Source: an uncultured cyanobacterium | GTDB taxonomy: Bacteria > Cyanobacteriota > Cyanobacteriia > Phormidesmidales > Phormidesmidaceae | Length of the DNA: 64,000 nt | Assembly (NCBI GenBank): GCA_963793265.1 | Contig: CAWBZI010000003.1 | Span: 1 to 64,000, forward strand | Direction: 5' to 3' | Shown here: positions 16,174-35,699 of the stretch, one piece after another | Layout: every line of letters starts with the position of its first letter | How positions within the stretch are numbered: position 1 is the first letter of the stretch | Notes under the pieces: model-generated | Database searches by the model: none | Told to the model about the DNA's origin: nothing | Seen by the model: only the letters and a program-made list of their open reading frames with translations | Program-made: the position numbers and the translations under genes

Positions 16174-16547
16174 TGTAGATGAGTTTGTATAAGGTTTAGA
16201 CGGTAGAGTGTGATCGCCTGGTCTTGTTTTTTTGTATAAGCCTCAAAGCGAGGCAATTAGATAAAATTAAAAGCGCGTTTTACTAAACGATAGTGAACGC
16301 AAGTATAGTAGACGATCTTAAGTCTATACAAAGTGCTCAGGCAAGCTTACGGACTTTATCAAACGTCTTTACGTTTGATCTATTGAGGGGTCTATCTGCG
16401 TAATGCCACAGAGCGAGGTTCTGAGTATCACAGTGTCGGAACTCGCGTCGTCGCAATTCGTACACTTTTACGGGATAGAAAAGTGATATTTATGATACAT
16501 GCGTGTTTTGCGTGTTCCTTTTTAAGCAGGCGTTCTGCAGCGTGGCT

Positions 16548-17999: not shown

Positions 18000-19083
18000 T
18001 CGCGTTGCTGATTCTATTTACTGGCTAAATCGCTATGTAGAGCGGGCCGAAAATGTGGCTCGCTTTATAGAAGTGAATCTTAATATGCTGATGGATAATC
18101 TGGTCGGGGTGTCCCAGCAGTGGGAGCCGCTGATTTCGGTGACGGGCGATCGCGAACTTTTCCATCAGCTCTACGCAGAGCCGACTAGCCACAACGTCCT
18201 TCAGTTCCTCACCTTCGACAGCCGCTCGCCAAACTCCGTGCGCTCCTGCGTTCGCGCCGCTAGAGAAAACGCCCGCTCCGTACGAGAAACTATCTCTTCT
18301 GAGATGTGGGAGCAAGTCAACAGCTTTTATCTGATGGTAGAAGACGCGGCCAAAAATAAGCCCGAAGACATTCAAGATATCTACGCTTTTTATGCCGAGG
18401 TCAAAATCGCCAGCCATCGATTTGTTGGCGTGATGAATGCGACTGCCTCCTGGAATGAGAGCTGGCACTTTGGCCGTTTGGGCCGCTACCTAGAAAGGGC
18501 CGACAAAACTAGCCGAATTTTAGATGTCAAATACTTTTTACTGCTGCCCTCTGTGACAGAAGTCGGTTCGCCGCTCGATAATTTGCAGTGGATTTCGCTG
18601 CTAAAGTCGGCGAGCGCCTATGAAATGTATCGTAAAACAGAACACACCATTTCGCCTACTGGCGTCGCCCGATTTCTCATCTTCGATCCGCACTTTCCGC
18701 GCTCTATCAAGTTCTGTTTGCGCCGAGCAGAAGAATCTTTGAAGGTGATTGCGGGGACTTCTGAGCAGGCGATGTTGAGTGAGCGTACGCTAGGCCGGTT
18801 AAGAGCTGAGCTAGAGTACGTCACGTTTGAAGAGATTTTTCAGCAGGGCCTCCACGAGTTTCTAGACGGCTTGCAGCAGCGGCTTAACCAGGTAGGAAGC
18901 TGCGTATATTCAGATTTTATCGCGATTCCACCTTCAGCTACGCGGCCAAAGGGATTGATTGAACCTCGAACAGGCGAGCCTCAAACAGACAAGCCTGAGA
19001 GAATGGAACAGTCTCAAACACCCTCTTTTAGTATGGAACAATCTTCTATTGCGGCCCCTTCACTCATCCGCGAGGTGAACTAA
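17992..19083 (+). CDS. Alpha-E domain protein (DUF403)
   Basis: MLSRVADSIYWLNRYVERAEN, ARENARSVRE, LGRYLERADKTSRILDVKY and FPRS motifs. Confidence 0.95.
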   Translation: MLSRVADSIYWLNRYVERAENVARFIEVNLNMLMDNLVGVSQQWEPLISVTGDRELFHQLYAEPTSHNVLQFLTFDSRSPNSVRSCVRAARENARSVRETISSEMWEQVNSFYLMVEDAAKNKPEDIQDIYAFYAEVKIASHRFVGVMNATASWNESWHFGRLGRYLERADKTSRILDVKYFLLLPSVTEVGSPLDNLQWISLLKSASAYEMYRKTEHTISPTGVARFLIFDPHFPRSIKFCLRRAEESLKVIAGTSEQAMLSERTLGRLRAELEYVTFEEIFQQGLHEFLDGLQQRLNQVGSCVYSDFIAIPPSATRPKGLIEPRTGEPQTDKPERMEQSQTPSFSMEQSSIAAPSLIREVN

Positions 19084-19086
19084 CTC

Positions 19087-19959
19087 GTGCGCTATCGCAT
19101 CACTCACAAAACGCGCTATCAATACAGTCGGCCTGTTCAACTGCGGCCCCACACCCTGAGACTATGCCCGCGCAGCGACGGCGCTCAGTGGCTACAACAG
19201 TTTGACATTTCAATCTCTCCTCAGCCCTCCCAACAGCGATATTTTCTGGACGTTAGCAGTACTACCTGCCTGCAGATTGCCTTTGACTCACCGATAGAGC
19301 ACCTTCATATTGAAACCATCAGCGAGGTGCAAACTACGCGCGATAATCCGTTCGACTATATGGCAGAGCCCTGGGCGATCGCACTCCCAATCAACTATCC
19401 TAGTGCCCTAGCCATGCAGCTTCGCCCGTATTTTGAATGGCCGGTAGGTTGGGGAGTAGATGAGGCGATCGCACCAGAAGTCTTAGACATCGCCCGCAGG
19501 CTAAAACGAGAAAACAACAACGTTGGCTACTTTTTAACTAACCTTACTCAGTTTATTCAAGAGCAGTGCGCCTATCAGCAGCGATTAGAAGGCGAGGCTT
19601 ATCCACCCGCCGTTACGCTGGCCAAAGGCAAAGGCACCTGTCGAGATTTTACGGTGCTGTTTATGGCGATTTGTCGCGCAGTTGGGCTCGCGGCTCGGTT
19701 TGTGAGCGGCTATCAAGAAGGTGACTTGGAGGGCGATGTACCACATGATTTGCACGCCTGGGCAGAGGTGTATGTGCCCGGCGGCGGGTGGCGAGGATTT
19801 GATCCGACTCTGGGGCTAGCAGTAGGCGATCGTCATGTGGCTTTAGCCGCTGCGCTCAATCCGGGTCAAGCGGCCCCTGTTTCTGGCAGCTTAGCCCCCA
19901 ATCGAGATGTGGAAACAGCGTTAAGCACCCACATCGATCTCTCTTTGATCGCCGACTGA
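19087..19959 (+). CDS. Transglutaminase-like protein
   Basis: YRITHKTRYQY N-domain; catalytic GTCRDF, HAWAEVY and FDPT triad. Confidence 0.95.
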   Translation: MRYRITHKTRYQYSRPVQLRPHTLRLCPRSDGAQWLQQFDISISPQPSQQRYFLDVSSTTCLQIAFDSPIEHLHIETISEVQTTRDNPFDYMAEPWAIALPINYPSALAMQLRPYFEWPVGWGVDEAIAPEVLDIARRLKRENNNVGYFLTNLTQFIQEQCAYQQRLEGEAYPPAVTLAKGKGTCRDFTVLFMAICRAVGLAARFVSGYQEGDLEGDVPHDLHAWAEVYVPGGGWRGFDPTLGLAVGDRHVALAAALNPGQAAPVSGSLAPNRDVETALSTHIDLSLIAD

Positions 19960-20251: not shown

Positions 20252-21298
20252 ATGGAAACAGAACAGCACCTCAAGATTCCCCTATGCCAGGCAGACTGTC
20301 AGCAGGCGATTAAACAAGCTGCCCGCTGGCAAGATCCAGCAAGTGCTGAGCAAGTAAAGTACAACACTCTAGCCGCGTTAGCTGCAAGCTACTATCTCAA
20401 GCTGATTGGCGTCGCTAGTGAAAGCTTAGAGAAAAAGCCCAACTTTTTACAGGCAACTTTTCCAAGCTGGGGAGAGCTGTTGATTTCATCGGCTCAGCGC
20501 TTACGGTGTTTGCCAGTCGTAGCCGGTCACTCTATAAGTCGGTCTATAAACGAGGCGGCTTTGAGTGTTCAACCAGATGATTCCTGCTTGGGCGTACTAG
20601 CCGTTCAAATAGATTTGACCCAAAGAGAGGTTCAGATTCTAGGTTTTTTATCTCGCGATCGCCTCACCGATCGCCTTACCGAACGCCTCACCGAACGTCT
20701 GAGTGATAGCCTCAAACTTCAACCCCTTACCGCTCTAATCAAAGCGCTAGAAGGTTCACCCATCGCCTCTTTACAGCAGTGGCTCACGGGCGCTTTTGAA
20801 GTGGGATGGCAGCAAATGTATCAGCCGAGGCCACGCACTCGAATGGCCTTTTGCTTTCGTAGCTCGCCCGAGTCAGACGCTACTGAATCTGCTCTATTAG
20901 ACACCATTCGCCATACCCAAAATGACGAACAGCGCTGGCAGGCCGCCGAACAGCTTTGGGAGCTAAATCCCCATCATCCCAAAAGCCCCGTTTTGCGCAC
21001 CAAAGATTTGGGGCTGTATTTGGCCGGGCACAGCGTCACGTTGCTGGTGGGCGTGCTGGCCAAAGCAGATGGAGAAAGGCTGATCTTGGCGCGAGTGCTG
21101 CCCGCCGAACAAAAGCCTTACCTGCCTCGTAACCTAACCCTAACGGGCGCAGATAGTGCGGGTGATACAGTGTTCTCTATTCAGTCGCGATCGCAAGATG
21201 ATTACATCCAATTCAAATTTACCGCCGCAGCAGGCGATCGCTTCCAGCTCCATATCAGCGCCAGCGAAGCGAGCGTCACCGAACATTTTATAGTTTAA
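20252..21298 (+). CDS. DUF1822 family protein
   Basis: YNTLAALAASYYL, GVLAVQIDL..REVQILGF, LQQWLTGAFEVGWQ and C-terminal YIQFKFTAAAGDRFQL...VTEHF, all DUF1822-like. Confidence 0.8.
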   Translation: METEQHLKIPLCQADCQQAIKQAARWQDPASAEQVKYNTLAALAASYYLKLIGVASESLEKKPNFLQATFPSWGELLISSAQRLRCLPVVAGHSISRSINEAALSVQPDDSCLGVLAVQIDLTQREVQILGFLSRDRLTDRLTERLTERLSDSLKLQPLTALIKALEGSPIASLQQWLTGAFEVGWQQMYQPRPRTRMAFCFRSSPESDATESALLDTIRHTQNDEQRWQAAEQLWELNPHHPKSPVLRTKDLGLYLAGHSVTLLVGVLAKADGERLILARVLPAEQKPYLPRNLTLTGADSAGDTVFSIQSRSQDDYIQFKFTAAAGDRFQLHISASEASVTEHFIV

Positions 21299-21327
21299 GT
21301 AAGCGACTCAACCGGGCCTCGAATCTC

Positions 21328-24291
21328 ATGACACCCCCCTCATCTACAGCCCCCCCGAATCCCAGAGGCCCGCAGGTCATTTTTGTGTTGCGCATTAGCA
21401 GCGGCAGCTTTGAAACCGGCTTTGCCGCCACGCTAGAAATCTCAGAGCCCGGACGACTAAACCCCCATCAAAGGTATTCACTGCCGCCCTGCCCCGAGCT
21501 GCCGATTGCCTACGATGACTGGCAGGCAAGCTACAGCGACCTCAATCAAAACAACCCGTCTACTCGCAAGATTCAGCCGGTGCCTGGTCAAACCATTCAG
21601 CGTAGCTATGCCGAACGCCAGAGCGAGTGCAAACAGGCCACTATTGCCTTTGAAGACAGATGCACAGAATGGTTCGAGCAGCCCATCTTTGAGGCGCTAC
21701 GCCGGTCAATTTTGGCGGCTGTTGCAACCTACGGATTGGAACAAGTCTCTATCTTTTTAGACACTAGCACTAGCAGCCCCGAACAAAACTTGCTGTTGCG
21801 CAAGCTGCCCTGGCATGTCTGGTCGCTCTTTGAAGATCTGCGGCGCTCGGAGCTTATTTTGAACGCGCCCGTTACGCCTATCAACCACCAGCTCACAGGC
21901 CCGGTCAAAATTCTGGCCATCTTTGGCTCTCAAGCGGGTGGCCTTCAGCTCAGCGGCGATTTGGCGACCCTAAAATCTTATATAGGCACCAAAGGCGCGC
22001 AGCTCACGCTTCTCGAACAGCCCGACGCTAGAGAGCTGCAAATTGCGCTCAGGCAAAAGCCCTGGGACATCATGTTTTTTGCAGGCCACAGCAGCAGTTG
22101 CAGCGATACATCCGGCGGCATTATTCAAATTAGAGATGATATTGTGCTCTCGCTAAGAGACTTGAAGCCGCACCTCAACCAGGCGGTAGAGAACGGGCTA
22201 AAGCTGGCTATCTTCAACTCTTGCGACGGCTTGTCTTTAGCCGATTATTTAGCCGCGCGCAAAGTGCCGATCAGCATTGTCATGCGAGAGCCGGTGGCCG
22301 ACCGGGTCGCTCACTATTTTTTAGAGTACTTTCTAGAAGAATTCTCTAAAGGTCAGATGACGCTGACCGCTGCGGTTCGAGTTGCCAGAGAGCGCCTGCA
22401 GTGGCTAGAGTCTGACGGGGCCGATGCTTGCCCTGCGGCCACCTGGCTCCCGATTATTTGCCAAAATCCAAACCAGTCTCCCCTCAGGTGGCCGGTTAAC
22501 GTGCCGCAGGCTGCTGCTACCGTCCTCCAACCCCAAACAAACACGCCAGTCGTAAATCCTAATCCAAGCCTTCTCCCCTCTCAGGCCCCTACCGTTCTTC
22601 ATCAGGCGACGACGCCCAGTCAGGCAGCCACTCAGGCAGCCACTCAAGCAGCCACTCAAGCAGCCACTCAGGCAACCGTTCTGCCAACCGGGCAGGCTCA
22701 GACAGTAGCGGCTCTCACATCCGCCATTCAAACGCCTGAAAATTCTGTTGAAGTAGGCGAATCAACAGCAATACCGCCTCAGCAGCGATCCTCTCAGCAA
22801 CAGAACAAGCGAATACTGAGAACAGGTGCTGTTTTGTTGTTTCTGCTGATGGTGGCTGGTAAGGGGATTGAGATGATAGTTGACAAAAACAGTCAGTCTG
22901 CCCCGCCTAAAACAGGCTATGAGACGTTGCAAGCTAGATTTAGCACGGGCGATCGCGAACTGTTTGTAGAAGAAGCAGCGTCTCTTAAGTGCGACAGTGC
23001 GCAAAAGTTCCAAGCCGCCAAGAGCAAGGGCATTCAGCGTGTTAACGACGGTCGCTCAGACGCCGCTGCCGCTGAATTTAAAGACGCTTTTGAAACCTGC
23101 CGATCACCCGAAGCCTTGATCTACAAAAACAATGCCCTAATCGGGAAAGGATCGGCCTACGAGCTTGCCGTGGTTGTGCCCTATACCAAAAACCGTAAGA
23201 ACGCCATTGAAATGCTGCGGGGTGCAGCCATGGCCCAAAACAACATCAACCAGGCAGGCGGATTAAACGGTATGCCCCTGAAGCTTGTGATTGTTGATGA
23301 CAGCGACAGTCCTAGCACGGCGGCTGATATTGCCAATGAACTCATCGACAACACAGAAGTGCTCGGCACCATCGGCCACTGGACAAGCGGCGTTAGCTTA
23401 GAGGCCGTTAAGGTGTACTGGCGGCGAAAGCGTTTAGCTTTTATCACCCCGATCAGCATGACTAGCAACTTAGAAGACTACGGCGAATGGGTGCTGAGAT
23501 CGGCAACGAATATCGAGAAAGCGCAGACAGCCGTCATAGACTATCTGATAGAGCAACAGTATACAAAAGCCGCTGTGTTCTATGTCGATGAGGCGCAAAC
23601 CAGCGAGGCGAGCGCGCTCTACAGCAAAGATTTGAGAGATCAGTTTGACCGGCTGTTTTCAAACTCGGGGGGTAAAGTGATTACTGGCGGGGAGAACTTT
23701 AGCGCGTTTAGCCTGGCCGATCCGGGGTTTCGAGAAAACGCTGAGGCGATCGCAACAGCGATGGTACAAGAGGCCAAAGCTCAGGGCGCGCAGGTGATTG
23801 TGCTCGCACCGAATAATGAGTTGGTGAGCAATGCAGAGCAGGTGATTAAAGCCGCCGACCAGGAAGGGATACCGGTAGTTGGCGATACTAACCTATACCG
23901 GCAAGAAGTTTTGGCCGCCACCTGCCCTGCCAGTGAGGGGATGGTGGCGGGCATTTCCTGGCATTCGGGCGGGCGCGCCAATCGTGACTTTGTTGAAGCG
24001 GCCAGCAGCTTGTGGGGAGGAGACGTTAATTTTGCCACGGCGATGACCTACAATGCGACGCAGGCAATGGCAGCAGCGATTCGCACGTCCCCACCAGGGG
24101 CGGTCAGTCGAGAAACCGTGCAAGCAGCGCTGAATCACCCAGATTTTGTCGTAGAAGATACTGCCGACGCGGCCCCTTTTACGTTTGATGAAAACCGGAC
24201 GAGGGCGGCAGCGGCTCAGCTTGTGGAGGTGGTGAGAAATGAAAGCAAGCCTTCTGGCTGCGAATATGTGGCGATGGGAGATAATACATGA
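21328..24291 (+). CDS. CHAT (caspase/HetF-like) protease - TM - type 1 periplasmic ligand-binding domain fusion
   Basis: LPWH, FFAGHS (His), LAIFNSCDG (Cys), VMREPV and WLPIICQNP motifs; Q/P/T linker; TM LRTGAVLLFLLMVAG; LivJ-like domain (INQAGGLNGMPLKLVIVDD, VLGTIGHWTS). Confidence 0.88.
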   Translation: MTPPSSTAPPNPRGPQVIFVLRISSGSFETGFAATLEISEPGRLNPHQRYSLPPCPELPIAYDDWQASYSDLNQNNPSTRKIQPVPGQTIQRSYAERQSECKQATIAFEDRCTEWFEQPIFEALRRSILAAVATYGLEQVSIFLDTSTSSPEQNLLLRKLPWHVWSLFEDLRRSELILNAPVTPINHQLTGPVKILAIFGSQAGGLQLSGDLATLKSYIGTKGAQLTLLEQPDARELQIALRQKPWDIMFFAGHSSSCSDTSGGIIQIRDDIVLSLRDLKPHLNQAVENGLKLAIFNSCDGLSLADYLAARKVPISIVMREPVADRVAHYFLEYFLEEFSKGQMTLTAAVRVARERLQWLESDGADACPAATWLPIICQNPNQSPLRWPVNVPQAAATVLQPQTNTPVVNPNPSLLPSQAPTVLHQATTPSQAATQAATQAATQAATQATVLPTGQAQTVAALTSAIQTPENSVEVGESTAIPPQQRSSQQQNKRILRTGAVLLFLLMVAGKGIEMIVDKNSQSAPPKTGYETLQARFSTGDRELFVEEAASLKCDSAQKFQAAKSKGIQRVNDGRSDAAAAEFKDAFETCRSPEALIYKNNALIGKGSAYELAVVVPYTKNRKNAIEMLRGAAMAQNNINQAGGLNGMPLKLVIVDDSDSPSTAADIANELIDNTEVLGTIGHWTSGVSLEAVKVYWRRKRLAFITPISMTSNLEDYGEWVLRSATNIEKAQTAVIDYLIEQQYTKAAVFYVDEAQTSEASALYSKDLRDQFDRLFSNSGGKVITGGENFSAFSLADPGFRENAEAIATAMVQEAKAQGAQVIVLAPNNELVSNAEQVIKAADQEGIPVVGDTNLYRQEVLAATCPASEGMVAGISWHSGGRANRDFVEAASSLWGGDVNFATAMTYNATQAMAAAIRTSPPGAVSRETVQAALNHPDFVVEDTADAAPFTFDENRTRAAAAQLVEVVRNESKPSGCEYVAMGDNT
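22621..22679 (+). repeat. 12-bp tandem repeat, about 5 copies (QAAT)
   Basis: CAGGCAGCCACT/CAAGCAGCCACT units in the CHAT protein linker. Confidence 0.9.
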
Positions 24292-25343
24292 CCACTGACA
24301 ATTGCGATCAGGCCACCCGCTTACTGCCGCCTCCTGTCTCTTCTTTTGCGATCGCCTCTATGAACGAAGCCGCCGACTACCTCAAAGCCTTTCTAAAGCT
24401 AATCAACAATCTAGACGCAGAGATTGAAGAGGACGCGGCAAAGCTGTTGATGCAAAAGGCGCAAATATCCTTAGCTCAGTGTTCAGAGCTACAAGAGTTA
24501 CTGAGCCAAACGGTACCGCAGCCCTTAGTAAAGATTGCCACTGAGCGGCTTTTGCAGCAGCTTCATTTGTGCAAAAATCCCGACCGGCTAGCTGAGTGGG
24601 TCAAAGCGCGCCTGCAAAAGATTGTTGATTCACTCCAGATAGATGAGAACCTTCGCGGGCTCATTCAACAGATTCAAGGACTGCCTAAGCGCAGCAGCGA
24701 TCGCCGTAATCTCATCAATACGCTCATCATTCAAATGCAGGCATCTGGCAAAATCACGGCCTGCATCTCGGGCCTACCGGCTGAGCTATACAGCGACGCT
24801 TTGAGCGAAACAATGCTGTGGTTTTTTGAGCATATAGACGAATACAACCCGTCACTATCTGGGCCGATCACGTGGTTCAACTGCAATCTGTTCTACACGG
24901 CCAGCCGCATCAGAAAAGCACACTACCGCCATTTGCCCCAGAAATTTCAGGCCACCGAAAGAGACAGGTGGTTGCAAGGTGGCCCCGATGCCTACGACTC
25001 GCTGATAACTGAGTCTGAGCACCAAACACTAGAAGAGCTATACGACTGGGTGCAACAAGATACGACCGGTCAGCTCAGGCGGACAGCGCTGAGCGATCGC
25101 CTTGATATCAACGTGCAGGCCATTCTCACAGCCGTCTTAGGACATATCCGCAAGCTGCGCAGCCTCAACCGAGCGCCTACGCAGCTTTACGATGTGTTTG
25201 CCAAGCAGCCCACAGACTTAGCGCAACTGTTCAAAACCCTTGCTGAGCGGCTAGCGTGCGAGCCCGAACGGCTACGGCGATTTTGGCGAGAGCAGTGTCG
25301 GCCTGCTATTCAGGTCTTCTTTCAGCAGAGCGGCAATGACTAG
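24288..25343 (+). CDS. Cyanobacterial sigma-70/ECF-like (HetZ-related) protein
   Basis: Region-2-like YSDALSETMLWFFEHIDEYNP...ITWFN and C-terminal WVQQDTTG...LAERL...LRRFWREQCRP HTH-like segment; ATGA coupling to the CHAT gene. Confidence 0.65.
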   Translation: MTTDNCDQATRLLPPPVSSFAIASMNEAADYLKAFLKLINNLDAEIEEDAAKLLMQKAQISLAQCSELQELLSQTVPQPLVKIATERLLQQLHLCKNPDRLAEWVKARLQKIVDSLQIDENLRGLIQQIQGLPKRSSDRRNLINTLIIQMQASGKITACISGLPAELYSDALSETMLWFFEHIDEYNPSLSGPITWFNCNLFYTASRIRKAHYRHLPQKFQATERDRWLQGGPDAYDSLITESEHQTLEELYDWVQQDTTGQLRRTALSDRLDINVQAILTAVLGHIRKLRSLNRAPTQLYDVFAKQPTDLAQLFKTLAERLACEPERLRRFWREQCRPAIQVFFQQSGND

Positions 25344-25437
25344 ATCGAGGATCAAATGAACGGCTCAACCGTTGTTTGCTGAAGCCCTCACCCCAACCCT
25401 CTTACCGTCAACCACACCCTCACAAGGGCGATATTCC

Positions 25438-26514
25438 ATGGCTACCCTATTGAACTGGCCACCGCTACCGATTTCGATTAATACGCGATCGCGTCAGCAG
25501 GCCGAAGCTTTTGCCAGCGGAGCTAATACCGATCAATCGGGCGCTGTTTACAGGCGGGCGATCGCTACCTTAGCCGTCCAACACTATCTGCGCCTGATCG
25601 ACGTGCCCCACCGATTAGAAACCCAGCCCAGCGGCCCTGCTTTATATATAGAAGAACTCAGCGGATACATCGGCTGCTGCGCGGTGGCACCAAATGCCGA
25701 TCGGTGCACGGTTCTAGAAGAGGACAGAGAGAATCGTAAGGGCTATCTGTTTGTAGAACTCAGCGAGCCCTACCTGCAGGCGAATGTTCTCGGCTTCGCG
25801 GGCACCCTCAGCGTTAGTCAGCTACCGCTCAGCTACCTACAGCCTTTAAGCGCATTTATTGAAGCTTTAGACGCTGCTACTGCGCGTCCGGCTATCTCGA
25901 TTGCTGACTGGGCAAAAGGTCTAGCTCAGGGCTGGCAAAGGCTTTACGATCTGCCGCCTGCGCTGCGACCTGTGCGATCGCCCGTGATCGCAATGAGAGG
26001 ATCGCGCCCGGCTGAACCCCAACCAACAAGCGCCGCCGCGCTGCTTGAAATATTAGATACCACAACCAACGACGTAATTCGCTGGCAGATCGCAGAACGA
26101 CTGGCAAAAGAGAGCCCCGAAACGGCATACACTGACCTTTCGAGCGCAGTATTTCAGGTGCGGCCACTGGCTGATGAGCTGGGCGGTCTGGCGGTAGCGC
26201 TACTCGTGGGCATTATCACCAAGCCAGATCAGACCTTTTTGGTGGGCTGTCGGCTCTATTCTGTGGGCGGTGATGAAGGCGATCGCCCAGCGCTACCCGA
26301 AGACATAGTGCTGCAAGGCATTGAAGAACAAGGAAATACGCCAGGTGGTGCAGATATCGGCAACCAGACTTTCTGTAAGCTGACACCCTCGGCTCACGGA
26401 GATCCCATAGAGTATCTATTAACGGCTGAGGCGGGCGATCGCTTCAGCCTAGAGGTTCGCTACTTAGATAGCGTTTCGACCAGCACATTCGTGTTACCTA
26501 CCTTTTCTAGCTAG
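25438..26514 (+). CDS. DUF1822 family protein (second paralogue)
   Basis: VYRRAIATLAVQHYL, RKGYLFVEL...ANVLGF, IADWAKGLAQGWQ and EAGDRFSLEV motifs. Confidence 0.75.
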   Translation: MATLLNWPPLPISINTRSRQQAEAFASGANTDQSGAVYRRAIATLAVQHYLRLIDVPHRLETQPSGPALYIEELSGYIGCCAVAPNADRCTVLEEDRENRKGYLFVELSEPYLQANVLGFAGTLSVSQLPLSYLQPLSAFIEALDAATARPAISIADWAKGLAQGWQRLYDLPPALRPVRSPVIAMRGSRPAEPQPTSAAALLEILDTTTNDVIRWQIAERLAKESPETAYTDLSSAVFQVRPLADELGGLAVALLVGIITKPDQTFLVGCRLYSVGGDEGDRPALPEDIVLQGIEEQGNTPGGADIGNQTFCKLTPSAHGDPIEYLLTAEAGDRFSLEVRYLDSVSTSTFVLPTFSS

Positions 26515-29232
26515 CTCATCAAGGTTAAACTGCTGTCGTAGTAACCGCTCATTTAATGTGACCTGATTCTCTATATCGTCGTACGTCAAGATCATATAGC
26601 CGTCGATATTTAGAACGCCCTGTAGGGTCTTCAGCAAAGGCTCAAGCGTATTAACTGGCTGGCTGGTGACTTGCGCTAGCTGGGCGAGTAGGAGGTGGCT
26701 GTTGTTTATTAATAGCGCTGACAGAATTTGTGCTGCCCATTCTTTAGAGAAGGAAGGGTGGCCTACCACTTGAAGCTGGTCTTGGTAGATTGGAGAGTGA
26801 AGCAGACGTTCTATCCAGGAAGTTGCCTGATCGCTTTGCGTGGCTGATTGAAAAGTATCGTGGTAGCTGAAGAGAGGCCCCAGTGACGTTTTGCCTGATA
26901 GCGCACAGGGGGCTAGTATGTTTTCAACATCTGGCTGCTCTATTGTTGACCACCAAAATGGCGTTTTTATATCTGTTGCCTGGCTGCCTTCTACTCGCAT
27001 TCCAACTGGCGAGAGAGTAGCCACTGGAACAATCATTTCCTGAGGCGTGATGCCGCCGTGATATCCCTTTTTTTTGGGGCTACAGTAGCGGAGTTTTTCT
27101 GTCCAGGGTGCAATCAGCGCAGATGATTCGGTTGCAAGCACACGATCGCCAACAACCTGAAGTTCTTGGGCGCTGTGTGTTCCATTATCCTCGCGCCATC
27201 GTTCACCGCCTTTACCTGCTTTTTTATAGTCTACACCGTGGTGAATAATGTGGCCGTGGTCGCTGGTGATGATCACCAGACGTTGAGCAATTCTGGCCGC
27301 TTCTAAGATAGGCGATAGCACTTTGATGCGATCGCTTGTCCAGGCAATATCGACCTGCTCTCCTTTATTGAGCAAATCGTCAACAGCGTTGATAACCAGC
27401 CCGATGACTTGGTTTTGAGGCGAGGAAATTGCACTATAAAGCGCTTCAGAAAGGTGAGGCGTATCGACTTCCTGAAGTCCTTTTTTGTGGAATAACAGTG
27501 GCGGCTTATTGCGCTTACAGTGCTTACGCAAGGCTGGGTGCTGGCTAAAGCCCTTAGTCTCTTGAGCCTGCTGGCCTTTTTGAAGCTGCCCGCACAGCAG
27601 ACTGTTGCGAGAAACTTCGGTGACGGAGGGAATGGCTGCTAGCCCGGCCTGCATCGGAGGGCCTTGAGCCTCATTCGTAATAAGTTGCCAGCCTTGTTGA
27701 ACCACATCGGCAAGCAGCTCGTGGGCGATCGCCATGCTGGCACCGTCGAGCACTAGCAGTAAAACAGGATGGTGCTCTGCAAAAGGCGCAACGACGCTTT
27801 CTAGAATTTGTTCGACTAGAAGAATAGATTTTCGCGTAGAGCCTATGGCTGTCCAGTCTTTGAGGAGAGTGGCAAATTGCTGTGACTGGATTTCTCTTAT
27901 TGTCGTAACGGTTTCAAAGAGCTTGCTGTAGGCGATAGAAAGCTCACGGTGGGGCTCTGCGATGGGGAGAGTGAGCCTGGCCCAGTCAAGAAAGCTGCCG
28001 GTGGTGGTGTAGTGAGCGATCGCCCCTTCTAAGGCACGGGCTGAGTCATTGAATTCCTTTGGATTGCGCTGTCTGCCGACTAGCCACTGAGCAAGCCGTA
28101 GGGCCATATTAATGCGTTCAATTCTACGGCTGCTTTTGTTTTGAATGACCTGTAGATGGTTCGTAAGTGCTTGGTGAGATTCAATGAGCTGATCTAACTG
28201 GGTCTGTTTAGGATTTTTGATGAGGGCGATCAGGTGTTGGCTGAGCTGACTGAGGCGCTGATTGAATCCTTTTGCTGAGACGGTGCTAAGGTAGGCAAAC
28301 TCATCCGCGCCAATCTCTGAGAGGATAGCGTCGCTGCGCTGAATGATGAGCTGCTGCTGGTCGGGTAGTTCGAGGAGCGCCTGTCGGGCGGCGGTGCTCC
28401 AGGTTTGCATGACATTTGGCGATGGCGACTGGCCACCGAGAAAGCGTTCTTCGAGTTTGCCGAGGGCTTTGTCGAGTTTGTTTTGGGTGTTGGGATGATA
28501 GACGACTTCGGCGGCGAGTCCGAGCGGTAGCGCGTCGGGGCTTTGGCTATAGAAGGTGCAGCCCAAGATAGCTTCGGTGGCGCTGCCGAGCCGATCTGTC
28601 AGCCAGTTGCTAGCAGCGGTGCGAAAGTCTTCGGGGGCCTGCTGGTAAAGGGCAATGTGCTCGCGCTGCGTTGACCATTTAAGAATGGCAGCTAGATCTG
28701 GCCGGTCGGCAGATAGCTTGAGGCCATGTGATAGCAATAGCGGCCACATGATCTCGGCATCTAAAAAGCCGCCCATGACGGGAGCGCATCGGTTTGCTGG
28801 GATCAGATCTATGAGGGCATCTGGAATCCATTGATGCTGAATAAGCCTGGGATCTATGTTGGTGGCGCGAAATAGAGATTTGACAATTTGCCAGGAATCG
28901 ATAGTGAATAGCTGCTGTTTGGTAAGCCGCAGCAAAATATCTTCGGCTAGGTCGGCGTTGGTTAGCGGCGTAATGAGTACGTGGATGGGCGCTTTGGCAC
29001 CGTTTTTTGGTTGATTTATATCGGCTGTCTGAGGCAGGTTTTGCAGGGCAAGGCGCAGAGCCAAAGGTGAGTCGCACTGGTCGATGATGTAGAGCTGGTC
29101 GCCGTCTTGCTGCTGACGATCGCCGCTCCATCGACCTTTGGCATGGATACCGACCGCCTGATGGCTATGAGAATGTAAGGCAATAGCGGTGACCTGCGCC
29201 TTGATTTGATTAAAGGTGGGGGTCGCTATCAC
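26494..29232 (-). CDS. pglZ: BREX-2/Pgl alkaline-phosphatase-family protein PglZ
   Basis: LLVLDGAS, PSVTEVSRNSLLCG, NAVDDLL, ITSDHGH and GYHGGITPQEMIVP motifs; type-2 C-terminal LNIDGY..L tail; coupled to pglY. Confidence 0.9.
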   Translation of the reverse strand: MIATPTFNQIKAQVTAIALHSHSHQAVGIHAKGRWSGDRQQQDGDQLYIIDQCDSPLALRLALQNLPQTADINQPKNGAKAPIHVLITPLTNADLAEDILLRLTKQQLFTIDSWQIVKSLFRATNIDPRLIQHQWIPDALIDLIPANRCAPVMGGFLDAEIMWPLLLSHGLKLSADRPDLAAILKWSTQREHIALYQQAPEDFRTAASNWLTDRLGSATEAILGCTFYSQSPDALPLGLAAEVVYHPNTQNKLDKALGKLEERFLGGQSPSPNVMQTWSTAARQALLELPDQQQLIIQRSDAILSEIGADEFAYLSTVSAKGFNQRLSQLSQHLIALIKNPKQTQLDQLIESHQALTNHLQVIQNKSSRRIERINMALRLAQWLVGRQRNPKEFNDSARALEGAIAHYTTTGSFLDWARLTLPIAEPHRELSIAYSKLFETVTTIREIQSQQFATLLKDWTAIGSTRKSILLVEQILESVVAPFAEHHPVLLLVLDGASMAIAHELLADVVQQGWQLITNEAQGPPMQAGLAAIPSVTEVSRNSLLCGQLQKGQQAQETKGFSQHPALRKHCKRNKPPLLFHKKGLQEVDTPHLSEALYSAISSPQNQVIGLVINAVDDLLNKGEQVDIAWTSDRIKVLSPILEAARIAQRLVIITSDHGHIIHHGVDYKKAGKGGERWREDNGTHSAQELQVVGDRVLATESSALIAPWTEKLRYCSPKKKGYHGGITPQEMIVPVATLSPVGMRVEGSQATDIKTPFWWSTIEQPDVENILAPCALSGKTSLGPLFSYHDTFQSATQSDQATSWIERLLHSPIYQDQLQVVGHPSFSKEWAAQILSALLINNSHLLLAQLAQVTSQPVNTLEPLLKTLQGVLNIDGYMILTYDDIENQVTLNERLLRQQFNLDELARKGR

Positions 29233-32200
29233 GGGCGATCAGTCTCCTTGGGAGCGGGTTGGGTGACCGTTTCCTCAATTATCCAGCTAAGGCTTAAGCG
29301 CACATTTTGCCCTGGTTTGACCGTTTTGCCTAGTGCGATTAGGGTATCTTGTGCGGCTTTGAAGTTGATATCGGCTTTGCTGCCTTCGCTGACTTTTTGA
29401 ATGACGGTAACGGTTTTGGGTGTTTTTCCTTTGACGGTTTTTGCGGGGGGTGGCGAAACGGGAGGCGCAACCGGGGGCGGTGAAACGGGAGCCGTATCGG
29501 CTGGGGGAACTGGCTGTACGGGTGCAGCGGGTTGCTGGGTGAGCAGTCTGACGGCCTGGTTTTGCGATTTTTTGATTTGTAAGCCCAGGGCAATCACGTG
29601 CTCGTCGCTGCTGAGGGCTTTAGTAATATCGCTCAAAATGCTCTGGGCTTCTGGCTGGCGCTTGTCGGTAAGATTGGCGATGCCCTGAAAAATATCCCAG
29701 CTAATGCTCTCTAAGGTTCCGGTCAGGGTAGCGGCTTTTTTTAGGCATTCGGACATGGCGGCTTCTGAGGTAGCGATCGCGCTGCTTGCGAGCACTTCAA
29801 TACTTTCGTCAGCTTTAGCTGAGCTGAGCTGTTCTAACAAAGCGAGTGTGGTAGTAGCGGTAGATAGGCGATCGCACTCCTTTTCAAGCGCTAGTTCTGC
29901 AAAAGCCGCTTGCAGCGCCTGCACGTAAGCCTGGCAATCTTCCAGCCGCGCTTTGGCTTTTTGCTGCACCCTAGCTTCTAGGTCGCTGGCGGTGCTGGCT
30001 TTGCGCAGGGCCGTGACCGATAGACCAAAGATGGCTTTGGCTTTTTGGATTGCGATCGCCCAGTCGGCTTCAGTCGGCAGCTTTTGTTCGCGCAGTTCGC
30101 AGTCGTTAGGAATCTCTTTGAGCGTGACATCAATGAGGTTGTTGTGGCGAAAAAAGCTGCGTCCGGTTTGCTCGGCGTAGGTAAGAATCACCAGATTTTG
30201 CAGCTCTTTAGAAAGACCCATTGGCTTAGGCCGATCTATCCACTGGCGCAGGCCACTAACCTGAGGTGTGCTGCCTGCTTTGGCAATCTCCTTAGTGAAG
30301 TGTTGTTTCCAGTGCTGAGCCAAAACAAAATGAGTCTCTGCCATTTCTCCGAGCATGAGCGGATTGGCAATTTGCCTGAGTAAAGGGCGTACGGCTCGCT
30401 CCACCTCTATTCTGCCGTCGGGAGTTTGGGCAGCTTGGCTAACGTACTGATATACCTTTTGCAGGCTGTTAAACTTGCTGGCGTCGGCTTCAAAGTTGGG
30501 CGCTGCTGGAAACTCATGGGCAAGCGCTTGTGAGAGTAGGTGTTCTAGTCCATCTGAGAGATTGGCTACTGTGGGCGGCTGTAGTTCAAAGCCGGGCTGT
30601 AAGGAGACGAACTGTTCGTTGAGTTCTAGGCTAAGCGCGTTGTCTAAAGAGTCGCGGGCGGTGCTGATACCATAGGCGGCATCTATGTGCTGGCAAACTC
30701 TTTGTCGTAAGACGCTGCGCTGGTTTTCGAGCAAAGATTTAGCGGTTTGGCGATCTTGTGGGGAGAGATGATTGGCGTAGCCAGAAAATCTTTCTCCTGT
30801 CAGGACATGATCTAACACTAACAATGTGCCGAGTTCTTTTTTGGCTTCTTCACTAAAAAAGGAGGGAATCCAGCAGAGGGTTTTAGCACCTTCAGCGTGG
30901 TCGTCTTTAAAAGCTTCGCAGGTTTGGCGATCGTCTTTGGGGGAGAAGGTGGCCTCGTCGAAGGGATAGTCGATCACCAGTTTCCAGCGGTCGTCTATGT
31001 TTTCTAGAGAGGCGGCGGGAAGTTCTCGAATGTTGCCGAAGATGATCGCGCCAGAACGCTTGGTGTTTTTCCAGATGAAGTCGTAAGACTGCTCGAACTG
31101 GTCTTCGCCTTGAATGTTGAGCTGGCTATACACCATATCTTTTACCAGGCGAATGCGATTGCCGCGATTGTCTTCTCGTTCGGCCTGCTTGAGGATGGTT
31201 TCGGTATCGACGCCTGAGAGCTGAATAGAAATGCTGGGGTTGGCGTTTTCCTCGCCAATGCGAATTTCACCCACGCTGGCGGCCCATGACTTGCAGCGGC
31301 GCAGCACTTCCTGACCCTCTCGTCCAAGAATGGGAGACTTGATGGTGCCGTGGTTGAGGCTAGCTAGGCGTTCGGCGGTGAGGCCACGTAAGGATTCGAC
31401 TTCGGGAACTAGGGCAGAAAGTAGGAGGGTTTTGATCAGGCGGTCGTCGTTGCGGAAGGCGGCGTGTTTGGGATCGGTGAGCGGAAGCTGTGCTATTTCT
31501 TCTTTGCGACCGTGAGTTTTTTCTAGTTCGGAGAGCAGCTTTTGCTGGTAGAGGCGCTTGGCGTTGTTGAAGTGAGTAGCCATGTCGGGGCTAAAAGCTT
31601 CGTCACCGTGGGCGACAACATCGAACAGATCGCCTACAGGAACAATGTCGCCGACGCTGAGGCTTTCGCGGTGATCTACTAGGAGCTGCATCATCACTTT
31701 GAGGGCGGTGCGTTCTCTTTGCAATACGCTAGAGACGGCAATCAGCGTTTGGACTAAAGCGGGGCTGAAGGGATACACTTTGCGAAACATTTCTCTGTCG
31801 CCTTCGCTGGTGAGCAGAGTGTTCATCACCGACTCTCGCACTTTGGCTGTTTGATCAAAGGCGGCGTTGAGTTCTGCTCGGGCAGCTTTGTTCTTGCATT
31901 TGAGCACTCTTTTTTCGGCGATCGCAGGCAGGTTACGATCTTCTAGGGTAATGCGATGGAAGCGGCCTTCCCAGTGCTTAAGCGCGTCGCTAAAGTTAAG
32001 GCGTTCGGCACCGGGGATGGAGTCGCCAATAAGTTCGCTCAGGTCGCGCTGGCGGGCGACGAAGCTGACGATGGGGATGGGGCGATCGGCGAGCTGGGCT
32101 TCGACGAGTTTGGAGAGTTTTTGGCCTTCTTGGTGAATGAATTTGAGGTCGGTGGCGCGGCTAGCGAGCCAGAGGATGAGTTCGTCGAGAAAGAGGATGA

Positions 32201-32981
32201 GGGCATCGTAGCCGAGGGCTTTGGCGTGTTTGCTGATGACGCTAAGGCCCTGATCGAGCGAGATGAAGGCTTCGCCTTTGCTGCCGGTTTGGATGTCGTA
32301 GGAGTTGAAGAACTGCTTGATTAGGTCGTTGATGAGTTTGGATCGTTCTTCTTCGCCGGGGGCGGCGGTGAGGGCGGCTTGGAAGCGATCGCTGTCCCAG
32401 CTTTTGGAGAGTTTGCCCCACCCGCTGCTGGTGCTGGTAGCTTCGCTGAGCTTGCTAAAGAATGCGTCGTCGCCCATGGTGGCACGTAGAGACTGGGCGT
32501 CGTTAAAAAGACCTTCGGCGAGGTATACGCCAGGGATGGGGGCGGTGGGATGGTTGCGGCGCACGAAGTCTACGTAGCCGCCGAGGATGCCGGATTCCAT
32601 GTTGGTTGCGCCGATCATGTGGTAGGGCACGAGGAGGAATTTTTTGCCGGTGATCCAGTCGTTGTGTTTGGTGATAACGGGGGCGAGTTCGGTGATGCCT
32701 TTGGCTTCGGGAATGCCTTGGAGGATGAGGTTGAGTACGGCCATGAAGTGGCTTTTGCCGCTGCCGAAGCTGCCGTGTAGGTAGCTGGCTTTGCTGCTGT
32801 TGCTGCTGAGGGCGCTGCTGATGAAGGTGAGGGCGTTGTCGAAGCAGTCTTTGAGTTCGGGGGTGACTACGTAGTCGCGCAGGGTGCTTTCGGGGCGGGT
32901 GACGCCCTCGGTGAGTTTGAGTACGAAGTCGCCTTTTTGGACGCGCTCGGGAATGTGAATAAGGTCTTTAATAAGTGTCAT
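29229..32981 (-). CDS. pglY: BREX-2/Pgl ATPase PglY
   Basis: MTLIKDLIHIPERV.KGDFVLKL N-terminus, Walker A LHGSFGSGKSHFM, Walker B LFLDELILWL, YPFSPAL and LQRERTALK. Confidence 0.9.
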   Translation of the reverse strand: MTLIKDLIHIPERVQKGDFVLKLTEGVTRPESTLRDYVVTPELKDCFDNALTFISSALSSNSSKASYLHGSFGSGKSHFMAVLNLILQGIPEAKGITELAPVITKHNDWITGKKFLLVPYHMIGATNMESGILGGYVDFVRRNHPTAPIPGVYLAEGLFNDAQSLRATMGDDAFFSKLSEATSTSSGWGKLSKSWDSDRFQAALTAAPGEEERSKLINDLIKQFFNSYDIQTGSKGEAFISLDQGLSVISKHAKALGYDALILFLDELILWLASRATDLKFIHQEGQKLSKLVEAQLADRPIPIVSFVARQRDLSELIGDSIPGAERLNFSDALKHWEGRFHRITLEDRNLPAIAEKRVLKCKNKAARAELNAAFDQTAKVRESVMNTLLTSEGDREMFRKVYPFSPALVQTLIAVSSVLQRERTALKVMMQLLVDHRESLSVGDIVPVGDLFDVVAHGDEAFSPDMATHFNNAKRLYQQKLLSELEKTHGRKEEIAQLPLTDPKHAAFRNDDRLIKTLLLSALVPEVESLRGLTAERLASLNHGTIKSPILGREGQEVLRRCKSWAASVGEIRIGEENANPSISIQLSGVDTETILKQAEREDNRGNRIRLVKDMVYSQLNIQGEDQFEQSYDFIWKNTKRSGAIIFGNIRELPAASLENIDDRWKLVIDYPFDEATFSPKDDRQTCEAFKDDHAEGAKTLCWIPSFFSEEAKKELGTLLVLDHVLTGERFSGYANHLSPQDRQTAKSLLENQRSVLRQRVCQHIDAAYGISTARDSLDNALSLELNEQFVSLQPGFELQPPTVANLSDGLEHLLSQALAHEFPAAPNFEADASKFNSLQKVYQYVSQAAQTPDGRIEVERAVRPLLRQIANPLMLGEMAETHFVLAQHWKQHFTKEIAKAGSTPQVSGLRQWIDRPKPMGLSKELQNLVILTYAEQTGRSFFRHNNLIDVTLKEIPNDCELREQKLPTEADWAIAIQKAKAIFGLSVTALRKASTASDLEARVQQKAKARLEDCQAYVQALQAAFAELALEKECDRLSTATTTLALLEQLSSAKADESIEVLASSAIATSEAAMSECLKKAATLTGTLESISWDIFQGIANLTDKRQPEAQSILSDITKALSSDEHVIALGLQIKKSQNQAVRLLTQQPAAPVQPVPPADTAPVSPPPVAPPVSPPPAKTVKGKTPKTVTVIQKVSEGSKADINFKAAQDTLIALGKTVKPGQNVRLSLSWIIEETVTQPAPKETDRP

Positions 32982-33061
32982 GAGAATAGCGGCTTGGGTT
33001 TAGGAATTTGACGGTTTAGCGATTGTGATATAGCAAGCAGCGAATTGCATTCGTCGTTTGC

Positions 33062-33126
33062 TAGTCGCTTAGCCTTTTGTGACTCAAGGGTCTTAGCCGC
33101 ACGCTATGCCGTAAGCTAAGCGACTA
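33062..33126. repeat. 12-bp inverted repeat between mazF and pglY
   Basis: TAGTCGCTTAGC ... GCTAAGCGACTA with a spacer of about 41 bp. Confidence 0.75.
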
Positions 33127-33152
33127 AAGCTATAGTTCAGCGATGGATAGTG

Positions 33153-33470
33153 TTAGTCATCTGCCGCAATTATTGTTGCGATAGATAGCGTTGTTTTAAT
33201 GAGGGTTTGGCTGGAAGCCGTGCCTAGCTTTCGGATAAACCGTTTGAGATCAACACTTCGCATCTGTAGTGTATCGATAGCGGAAAGCTTTCTTAAGCCG
33301 TTGCTGGCGTCAGGTTTAATTTTTATGTGCCAGGCGTTTCGACTGAAGCTGGGTTTCCAATCGGTGATAGGGACGATGAGTTTGACAGGTAAGCGCCCCA
33401 TCTTATTAGCGCTAATGACAACGACGGGACGTGTTTTTTGAATCTCTGAGCCAATGGTTGGATCGAGGTC
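33153..33470 (-). pseudogene. mazF: PemK/MazF toxin, 5'-truncated
   Basis: LDPTIGSEIQKTRPVVVIS...IVPIT...QMRSVDLKRF. The normal RG(E/D)(V/I)W start is absent; upstream sequence is antisense intron ORF. Confidence 0.75.
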
Positions 33471-35113
33471 AAAATCGTTCTCCTTTGAGAGATGTCTATC
33501 GACAACTGTATAAAAAGCTTTCTCCGAAAGATATTTCGAAAGATCGGTACGAGCGCTATCGTTGGACACCCGTTCGACGAATACACATTCCTAAGAAAAA
33601 CGGTAAAACCAGACCGTTGGGCATTCCGAGCTGGTCAGACAAACTGCTCCAGGACGTGATTCGCTCTCTTCTAGAGGCTTATTACGAACCGCAGTTTTCT
33701 AGACATTCACATGGTTTCAGACCAGGACGCGGCTGTCACACGGCCTTAGTGGAAATTAAGAAGGTGTGGCACGGAACCAAGTGGTTCATCGAAGGCGATA
33801 TCCGAGGCTGTTTCGACAGCATTGATCAGGAGATTCTGCTGTCAATCCTGAAAGAAGATATCCACGATAACCGCTTCCTCCGTCTGATGAAGAACCTGTT
33901 GCGGGCAGGATACATGGAAAATTGGCGGCGCACACCGACCTTGAGCGGGACACCGCAAGGGTCAATTCTGAGTCCAATTTTATCCAACCTGTATCTCAAT
34001 CGGTTCGATGCATTTGTCGAACAGACCTTGATTCCAGACTACACAAAGGGCAAGAAGCGGGCGCATAATCCGTACTACAACCGCCTATCGAATAGAGCCT
34101 ACTATTTGAGACGGCAGGGTCAACCAGACGCGGCAAAAGTGTTGGAGAAGCTTCGCCGAAGTGTACCAGCCAATGACCCGCATGACCCGGCCTATCGGCG
34201 GTTGCACTACGTGCGATATGCGGACGATTTCTTGCTAGGCTTTGCAGGGCCAAATCAGGAAGCAGAGGACATCAAAACAAAAATCAGACAGTTCTTGCGC
34301 GATAGTCTCAAACTAGAGCTATCTGAAGAGAAGACTTTGATTACTCATGCAACCACCCAAAAGGCTCGATTTCTGGGCTACGACATTGCTGTGACTCAAT
34401 GTGATTCCAAAATCACGACGAACAGACGGTCTGTGAATGGCGGGATTGCTCTGCGAGTACCTGCTGCCTTCATTAATGACCGATGCCGTCGCTACATGAA
34501 GAAGGGCAAGCCTATTCACCGAAAGGAGCGAACTCACGAGACGGACTACAGCATCATCTGTCAGTACCAATCGGAGTACAGAGGTTACGTCCAGTACTAC
34601 CAGCTAGCGGACAACATCGCTTGGCTTTCTAAGCTGCACTGGGCAATGCGGTTGTCTCTACTCAAGACGTTGGCGCACAAGTACAAACTGAGTGTGGCCA
34701 AAGTACGCCGCCGATATGCGGCTACGGTAGAGACACCTAAAGGCCCCAGGAAGTGCTTAGAAGTTCAAGTGCCGCGAGCTGGGAAGAACCCTCTGGTTGC
34801 TCGCTTCGGGGGCATTCCATTGTGTGTCAACCGGGAGGCGATTATTCAAGACCGAGTACTCACTAAGCCATCAATGGGGCGGACTGAGCTAATTCAACGA
34901 CTGTTAGCAGACGCCTGTGAAGCTTGTGGCTCAACACTCAATGTTGAGGTACATCACATTCGGAAGTTGGCAGACTTGAACCAACCAGGGCGCAACCCTA
35001 AACCGGGATGGGCGAAACTCATGGCGGCGCGGCAAAGAAAGACATTAGTCCTCTGCCGTCAATGTCATCGGAATCTCCATGCTGGCAGGCCATTGAAGGC
35101 AAAGGCGGGATGA
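33461..35113 (+). pseudogene. ltrA: Group II intron reverse transcriptase/maturase with HNH domain, N-terminus damaged
   Basis: RPLGIPSWSDKLLQ, GFRPGRGCH, EGDIRGCFD, TPQGSILSP, YVRYADDF, X domain and CEACG...HH...LCRQCH. The native start and most of RT0 are missing. Confidence 0.88.
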
Positions 35114-35122
35114 GTGACTGGA

Positions 35123-35217
35123 GAGCTGTGATGCGGTGAAAGCCGCACGTCCGGTTCGGAGGGGGGACGATGGAAAAGGAGCTATCACCTAGCCACCTCG
35201 TCAGCGTCCTACCCTAC
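35123..35217 (+). ncRNA. Group II intron catalytic domain V and domain VI
   Basis: AGC triad, GAAA-containing loop, DVI stem with bulged A, and terminal UAC. Confidence 0.88.
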
Positions 35218-35688
35218 TTTTTAGAACTAGGAGAACGAAATAGCTTTACGGAGATAGAGTTAGAATCGGCTCTGATTGAACAATTGCAGGCATTTTTACT
35301 GGAGCTAGGCAAAGGATTTTCGTTTGTTGCCAGGCAGCGGCGGATTACGCTGGATGGAGAATTCTTTTATGTCGATTTGGTGTTTTACAACTATTTGTTG
35401 AAGTGTTTTGTACTGATTGATTTGAAGCTAGGCAAGCTGACGCATCAGGATATTGGTCAGATGGATACCTATGTTCGACTATACGAAGATCAATTCCGGC
35501 GAGAAGATGATAATCCGACTATCGGGCTAGTGTTGTGTTCAGAAAAGAATGAGGCAGTTGCAAAATACTCTGTTCTCTCTGATGGCAAACAGATTTTTGC
35601 ATCAAAATACCGCTTTGTGCTACCGACCGAAGAAGAATTAGCACAAAGCTTAATGGCTATAGAAGCAGAGATTGAAGACTTAGCTTGA
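35218..35688 (+). pseudogene. DUF1016 (YhcG-like PDDEXK) gene, 3' exon only
   Basis: FLELGER...FLLELGKGFSFVARQRR...DLVFYNYLLKCFVLIDLK...DIGQM...NPTIGLVLC starts exactly at the intron end. The 5' exon is not in the window. Confidence 0.85.
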
Positions 35689-35699
35689 CACCAACATAA

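Follow-up and report, generated by a model that had tools for sequence, protein, structure and literature searches.

What does a cluster of genes do that places a caspase-like receptor and a sigma-like protein between two DUF1822 genes, and is the cluster complete? The question is raised by positions 20,252 to 26,514 of a 64,000-nucleotide stretch (the window) from an uncultured cyanobacterium of the Phormidesmidaceae. The locus is a truncated copy of a five-gene cassette in which a BREX-2 fragment has replaced a second receptor. Gene orders in related genomes show that DUF1822 itself splits into an N-domain linked to sigma genes and a C-half linked to genes for CHAT-domain proteases. The most likely reading, with about an even chance of being right, is that a sensor-gated CHAT protease cuts DUF1822 after a linker arginine and frees a sigma factor held by the N-domain. 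An earlier note on this DNA had described a four-gene unit. The genes are real, co-oriented and tightly spaced, with a 29-bp gap between DUF1822-A (DUF-A) and the receptor CHAT1, an ATGA overlap between CHAT1 and the open reading frame (ORF) of the sigma-like protein, and 94 bp to the ATG at 25438 of DUF1822-B (DUF-B). However, they are not a complete system, as a fifth gene, CHAT2, is missing here and had been overlooked. The four genes are:

20252..21298, + strand: DUF1822-A, 348 amino acids, Pfam DUF1822 match of 147.5 bits, the partner gene of CHAT1.
21328..24291, + strand: CHAT1 receptor, 987 amino acids, with Pfam CHAT and Peripla_BP_6 domains.
24360..25343, + strand: predicted divergent sigma-like protein of the extracytoplasmic function (ECF) type, assigned by structure model and start conservation; Met25 is the likely start of a 351-amino-acid ORF that opens at 24288.
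25438..26514, + strand: DUF1822-B, 358 amino acids from the ATG (the ORF opens at 25372), Pfam match of 66.8 bits, in the canonical slot after the sigma gene.

The neighbors of DUF1822 genes are consistent across genomes. This genome has six cassettes of the EACC2/DUF1822 type and seven DUF1822 genes, six of which directly precede a CHAT gene, the seventh being DUF-B. Seventy-five regions around DUF1822 matches from 30 relatives, 18 of them in the same genus, were annotated with local profiles, and the counts from them are used descriptively. Of the 84 DUF1822 genes whose downstream sequence is long enough to judge, 53 have a CHAT gene as their direct downstream neighbor; this tally excludes 4 further genes at contig ends. 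The linkage of DUF1822, CHAT and sigma-like genes beyond chance, which the earlier note had named as a check, is borne out in these figures from the genome and its relatives. The N-domain follows the sigma gene. A sigma-like gene lies directly upstream of 69 of the 73 DUF1822 genes that have an N-domain (three are weakly classed) and of none of the 13 that lack it (0 of 9 with over 3 kb upstream in view), where split genes count as one and two genes truncated by the start of a contig are not counted. DUF-A and its orthologues account for three of the four exceptions, and their sigma gene is further down the same cassette. Three classes of sigma-like protein precede DUF1822, a short one that includes the protein of this locus and two longer ones. 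All three tested members of the second class scored over the TIGR02937 cut-off, and the third class is joined to the second by hhalign at 99%; hhalign did not link the class of the locus to the two longer classes.

Judged from the related loci L010, L122, L009 and L011, the full unit has two pairs of DUF1822 and receptor genes, with a single sigma gene between them whose product carries a 90-residue helical extension. In L010 and L122 the order is DUF-A, CHAT1 with a periplasmic binding protein (PBP) domain, sigma, DUF-B, and CHAT2 with a PBP domain. L009 and the longer L011 have the same genes shuffled, and the DUF1822 gene before CHAT1 is N-truncated. The gene that precedes CHAT1 in L122 is frameshifted within its N-domain, which may reflect an assembly error. 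The two DUF1822 paralogues said earlier to flank one receptor are thus both present, but each precedes its own CHAT receptor in relatives. Among 173 genomes of the order, the sigma clade of the locus was found in four, all belonging to the genus of this genome. The proposed translational coupling of receptor and sigma is doubtful, because the methionine that at least 90% of 15 homologues share corresponds to Met25 (nt 24360) of the sigma-like protein, and L010 and L122 lack the ATGA overlap.

Comparison with L122 shows where the second receptor was. In L122 only two bases separate the end of CHAT2 from a proteasome-like gene, after which come a zinc-ribbon gene, pdxJ, and a RidA-like gene; a transglutaminase gene lies on the other flank of the cassette. 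The window shares these flanks, with 73-91% identity for most of the genes and 43% for the zinc-ribbon gene. The slot of CHAT2 in the window holds a 9.2-kb BREX-2 remnant (26515-35699), and no CHAT2 orthologue was found in this 99%-complete genome, the best match being CHAT1 at about 41%. The segment is:

26515..35699, no strand given: segment in the place of CHAT2, outside the cassette, with pglZ, pglY, a PemK/MazF-like gene, a group II intron-type reverse transcriptase, and a YhcG fragment.

The BREX-2 (Pgl) genes adjoin the cassette as neighbors. The pglZ gene overlaps the DUF-B stop, and the remnant formed by pglZ, pglY, and the PemK-like gene spans 26494-35688; the reverse transcriptase, on the opposite strand, interrupts it upstream. 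The match to pglZ is over its cut-off at 719 bits and that to pglY is under its cut-off (1099 bits against 1700), while a search of this genome for pglX gave no match. Near-identical DNA from three sequencing runs in two studies departs from the window exactly after the DUF-B stop. An ATG is found 15 bases past the point of departure, and our guess is that it opens CHAT2. One of the three runs also carries the form joined to pglZ. In run X2 the final 90 bases of DUF-B (window 26424-26514) occur as two alleles, of which one runs into pglZ and the other into different sequence; this points to recombination inside the 3' end of the gene. The sequence that follows DUF-B in the other strains, of which 30 bases are visible, was not found in this genome. 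Since the BREX-2 remnant occupies the place of CHAT2, the adjacency of pglZ is accidental, and it no longer serves as the hint at a defense or stress role that it had been taken for. The same pglZ-pglY-PemK genes are found in another context in L125. Among the 30 relatives, BREX-2 pglZ scores over its cut-off in two, both times on contigs other than those with DUF1822 genes, and no BREX genes were found beside the orthologous cassettes in the three examined.

The predicted fold of its region 2 places the third gene product in the sigma-70 family, as a putative sigma factor of the ECF type. It has no Pfam or NCBIfam match, and its nearest ESM Atlas cluster is automatically named sigma-70 family with a score of 0.96. 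The AlphaFold model, with a predicted local distance difference test score (pLDDT) of 90, has a helical N-extension of about 90 amino acids, then a sigma-2 fold and a weaker sigma-4-like C-terminus. The best region 2 match, to SigW, has a Z-score of 9.8 (root-mean-square deviation, rmsd, 2.0, 86 residues aligned), which is below the caution line of the tool, about 13 for helical folds. In the library structure search the top 31 rows were sigma factors, chains of sigma-containing complexes, or one sigma-derived scaffold whose residue range is identical to that of a sigma domain. The earlier description of this gene as sigma-70-like therefore stands on the region 2 match. Within the sigma-like family, Pfam Sigma70_r4_2 matched weakly in 3 of 44 members. 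Foldseek found no match at E <= 0.001 for the models of the sigma-like protein and DUF-A, and a PDB sequence search with the sigma-like protein and DUF1822 found nothing meaningful.

CHAT1 is a putative active CHAT protease of clan CD, as judged from its intact His-Cys dyad. The CHAT domain is at residues 212-388 (Pfam, E 2.7e-11), and His254 (FAGHS) and Cys299 (FNSCDG) are invariant in all 50 family members. A LivJ-type binding domain, Peripla_BP_6, is at residues 628-969 (Pfam, E 9.8e-30). The protein has a single hydrophobic segment at 500-518, preceded by basic residues, with a Kyte-Doolittle 19-mer score of 2.02 (the next best is 1.19), and the matching segments of three homologous receptors score 1.44-2.48. 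A long low-complexity linker rich in Pro, Gln, Ala, and Thr joins the protease to the membrane segment. This layout agrees with the earlier account of a 987-residue protein with a CHAT dyad, one transmembrane (TM) helix and a LivJ-like domain, and it suggests that the protease is cytoplasmic and the sensor periplasmic. Ahead of CHAT, all 50 aligned receptors have an N-terminal module with invariant residues, which is tentatively identified as EACC2 from its position and context. The C-termini of the receptor family vary. Scans of 33 of 48 gave 21 CHASE2, 7 PBP, 2 nSTAND1, and 1 NACHT domain, and 2 were without a match. A PDB sequence search with the N-terminal half of the receptor found nothing meaningful, the best match being a CHAT protein at E 0.12.

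DUF1822 is predicted to consist of a nuclease-like N-domain in which catalytic residues are not conserved, then a loose linker, and finally an immunoglobulin (Ig)-like C-domain. The DUF-A model (pLDDT 85) has an alpha/beta N-domain at 1-167, a low-confidence linker at 191-210, a helical hairpin at 212-238, and an Ig-like beta-sandwich at 247-347; a short motif with the near-invariant Trp177 lies between the N-domain and the linker. The N-domain has middling similarity to PD-(D/E)XK nucleases, with a Z-score of 7.6 to I-Ssp6803I (rmsd 4.1, 118 aligned) and 6.2 to NhoI, and the C-domain matches Ig-like folds with Z-scores up to 8.2. In the N-domain, conservation is poor at the columns picked by eye as possible catalytic sites, with D in 30 of 69 rows, E in 16 of 69, and Lys outside the three commonest residues. 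The label of tetratricopeptide repeat (TPR) protein was rejected, as the model has one helical hairpin only and there is no TPR match in Pfam. The DUF1822 C-half is also found behind a long N-terminal region, in proteins of 620-880 amino acids that have no sigma gene and are often encoded before a CHAT receptor:

C7:321074-325721 of this genome (G000), and in L050, L075-L079, L081, L082 and L084: long-N-terminus DUF1822 fusions.

The linker has one residue that is kept throughout most of the family. Despite gappy flanks, the linker arginine is the best-kept charged residue of DUF1822, found in 61 of 69 homologue rows and in 31 of 36 non-redundant rows (below 50% identity). A count that needs no alignment gives [FMY]R in 49 of 69 linkers versus 12.2 +/- 3.1 (maximum 22) in 1000 shuffles. 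Around Arg203 the pLDDT is 56-61, the least confident long stretch of the DUF-A model. The context is FCFR/SSPE in DUF-A and IAMR/GS in DUF-B, and C-halves joined to other N-termini keep a hydrophobic-Arg-small motif, as judged by eye. HetF cuts PatU3 between R117 and S118, TNYR/SPET (PMC9457339). The resemblance of the DUF-A context, FR/SSPE, to this site, YR/SPET, makes the arginine a candidate cleavage site. The two sites are:

20858..20860, + strand: predicted cleavage site at Arg203 of DUF1822-A (AFCFR/SSPE), from linker conservation and by comparison with TNYR/SPET of PatU3.
25996-25998, + strand: linker Arg of DUF1822-B (IAMR/GS), from the sequence.

The module is known from computational work, and the layout with two receptors around one sigma is a variant of it. 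The system is not undescribed: it is catalogued by Kaur, Iyer, Burroughs and Aravind (2021, eLife; PMC8195603), who describe a constant EACC2 and caspase with a variable sensor, mostly beside ECF sigma and DUF1822 genes. Their paper calls DUF1822 a TPR protein and gives it no role, proposes self-cleavage of the receptor as an autopeptidase, and places such systems among counter-invader systems; its table has DUF1822 C-halves with other N-termini preceding EACC2-caspase. DUF1822 otherwise appears in a variant table in PMC9679502. The locus is like the Kaur cassettes in that it is cyanobacterial and has a constant N-terminal module, a caspase/CHAT domain, and a variable sensor (here a small-molecule-binding type of domain) behind a predicted TM helix, together with sigma and DUF1822 genes. 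It is unlike them in having two DUF1822-receptor pairs around one N-extended sigma, and DUF1822 is modelled as nuclease-like and Ig-like rather than as TPR.

In this genome, the CHAT proteins outside the cassettes that come closest to the cassette proteases are HetF and a HetF-like protein. In Anabaena PCC 7120, PatU3 inhibits the ECF sigma HetZ, and the two are a published sigma/anti-sigma pair (PMC13342950). This genome has 23 Pfam CHAT matches, and in a search with the cassette-protease profile HetF is the closest of the non-cassette ones with 87 bits, followed by a HetF-like protein with 82 and the next non-cassette CHAT with 18. The cassette proteases and HetF have in common the motifs FNSC and M-x-E-x-[IV]-P-D. 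Like HetF-PatU3-HetZ, the cassette has a CHAT of the same subfamily with a membrane anchor (predicted in the cassette), an aromatic-Arg/Ser site, a sigma gene followed by the gene of its inhibitor (putative in the cassette), and an ECF-type sigma with insertions. However, HetF has a TPR sensor, and hetF and hetZ lie apart in this genome. The PatU family of this genome has P-x-[YF]-R in 112 of 120 members, and in a global alignment the PatU and DUF1822 arginines are in register with scores that are not significant. Orthology of the cassette to HetF and HetZ was rejected: the HetF model gave 24 bits against a cut-off of 1200, there was no HetZ model match, and the genome has its own hetF, hetZ, and patU elsewhere. 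The hetZ-patU pair, two further HetZ relatives and the hetF homologue are at C1:964787-967205, C4:207146-208666, C6:356817-358013 and C6:845865-848246.

Other CHAT proteins are also tied to sigma factors. In the type III-E craspase, the CHAT protein Csx29 acts on Csx30, which is linked to sigma. The craspase differs from the cassette receptor in being RNA-triggered and cytoplasmic. The cassette has in common with the craspase and with DdvA/DdvS of Myxococcus xanthus a CHAT domain connected to sigma/anti-sigma control. According to PMC11506125, DdvA/DdvS is a CHAT/sigma pair that regulates defense islands, self-cleavage of DdvA is proposed, and craspases target putative anti-sigma factors. In DdvA, unlike the cassette receptor, the CHAT domain lies in the periplasm and belongs to the anti-sigma.

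In the preferred mechanism, a small molecule in the periplasm would bind the LivJ-type domain and switch on the cytoplasmic CHAT protease. The C-half of DUF1822 would dock on the protease, which would cut after the linker arginine, Arg203 in DUF-A and the matching residue in DUF-B. Cleavage would destabilize or detach the N-domain and free the sequestered sigma. The gene order points to an anti-sigma role of DUF1822; of the two paralogues, DUF-B is more likely to act as anti-sigma and DUF-A to be paired with CHAT1. Now that CHAT2 is lost, release of the sigma would need DUF-B to be cut by CHAT1 or by one of the five other cassette proteases of the genome.

Several observations weigh against this mechanism. 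CHAT genes are absent directly downstream of 31 of the 84 DUF1822 genes, and several of the DUF1822 genes without an adjacent downstream CHAT gene still carry the linker arginine. The sample is mostly one genus, and its members are kin and not independent, so the linkage counts serve as description. Seven homologues, P0025-P0031, lack the linker arginine. The arginine could have another role, as a docking or inhibitory residue. On the sigma side, region 4 matches sigma-4 domains weakly (Z 5.0-5.5), and the sigma clade of the locus has Ser/His where most family members have the Gln of a D-x-x-Q motif, which we take to be the core-binding motif. Homology of PatU and DUF1822 is not claimed: hhalign gave P 0.006 and a probability of 6%, a deeper PatU set scored 20.7, a value that 2 of 60 nulls (shuffled or reversed) surpassed, and in cross-searches with hidden Markov models (HMMs) the best PatU, at E 0.18, was among the genome background. 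A literature search that covered few subscription journals found no experimental study of DUF1822 or its cassettes. In P0025-P0031 the helical hairpin is kept and the linker is hydrophobic, and their partner proteases might differ in specificity.

Of the alternatives, the one that survives best is that the five-gene form worked as described and this copy is partly disabled, its sigma locked by DUF-B now that CHAT2 has been replaced. It is compatible with the preferred mechanism and was judged independently of it, and we consider it possible but rather unlikely. The absence of CHAT2 from the genome and a junction exactly at the DUF-B stop fit this account, but none of the four remaining ORFs is broken, the dyad and the arginine are in place, and CHAT1 and the five other cassette proteases are still present.

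It is unlikely that the receptor cleaves itself and that DUF1822 is an uncut adaptor relaying the signal to the sigma. Self-cleavage is put forward in section 9 of PMC8195603 and likewise for DdvA in PMC11506125, and the linker of CHAT1 between protease and membrane is long. However, orthologues differ widely in the length and sequence of this linker, and self-cleavage leaves unexplained why an arginine is kept in the loose linker of DUF1822 and travels with the C-half.

Somewhat more doubtful still is the idea that DUF1822 is a securin-like inhibitor or chaperone whose arginine is a pseudo-substrate in the active site, the true substrate being another protein, possibly the N-extension of the sigma. 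DUF-A precedes CHAT1 without an upstream sigma, the N-domain of the gene before CHAT1 is lacking in L009 and L011 or frameshifted in L122, and the sigma of the locus has a 90-residue extension, as in pro-sigma factors. Yet most sigmas of the family have no extension, the N-domain tracks the sigma in the 69 of 73 cases given above, and the linker site, with a small residue after the arginine, resembles that of a real HetF substrate. A defense or stress module working with the adjacent BREX genes is very improbable, for although pglZ overlaps the DUF-B stop, Kaur et al. group such systems with counter-invader systems (PMC8195603) and CHAT/sigma pairs such as DdvA/DdvS govern defense islands elsewhere (PMC11506125), the fragment displaced a cassette gene, has no detectable pglX, and is not linked to DUF1822 in the relatives or orthologous cassettes, which contradicts the claim of linkage.

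If DUF1822 is cut and releases a sigma, this may apply beyond the locus. We propose, tentatively and with clearly less confidence than the mechanism itself, that DUF1822 is the substrate and anti-sigma of the whole receptor-caspase family, with the C-half as a portable dock-and-cut tag and the N-domain as a nuclease-derived sigma trap. HetF-PatU3-HetZ would then be a domesticated member, and the five-gene variant would feed two small-molecule receptors into one sigma. Filamentous cyanobacteria have several such cassettes each. If the proposal is true, caspase-like proteases would link periplasmic ligands to transcription in a single, widespread step, and heterocyst patterning would belong to a larger family. 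With a proposed substrate, a residue (Arg203), and a two-part DUF1822, a family of unknown function becomes testable, while this locus is a damaged version of a module already catalogued.

Minor features were noted in and around the cassette. A promoter scan upstream found two weak sites with 9 of 12 positions. The spacer between the sigma and DUF-B genes has one repeat fragment, and there are loose ends at 25359-25402, covering it:

25382..25402, + strand: remnant of a dispersed short repeat, with 13 genome matches at <=2 mismatches.

A 1156-amino-acid ORF without a Pfam match is at 41911-45381 (+ strand) of the window. At 14356-16173 (- strand) there is an AT-rich gene (GC about 0.42) of 605 amino acids with a weak match to Card1-like endonucleases (E 7e-5, below the cut-off). 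An operon with ATP-grasp, alpha-E, and transglutaminase genes occupies 16503-19959, and the proteasome-like gene at 35700-36464 faces it across the cassette.

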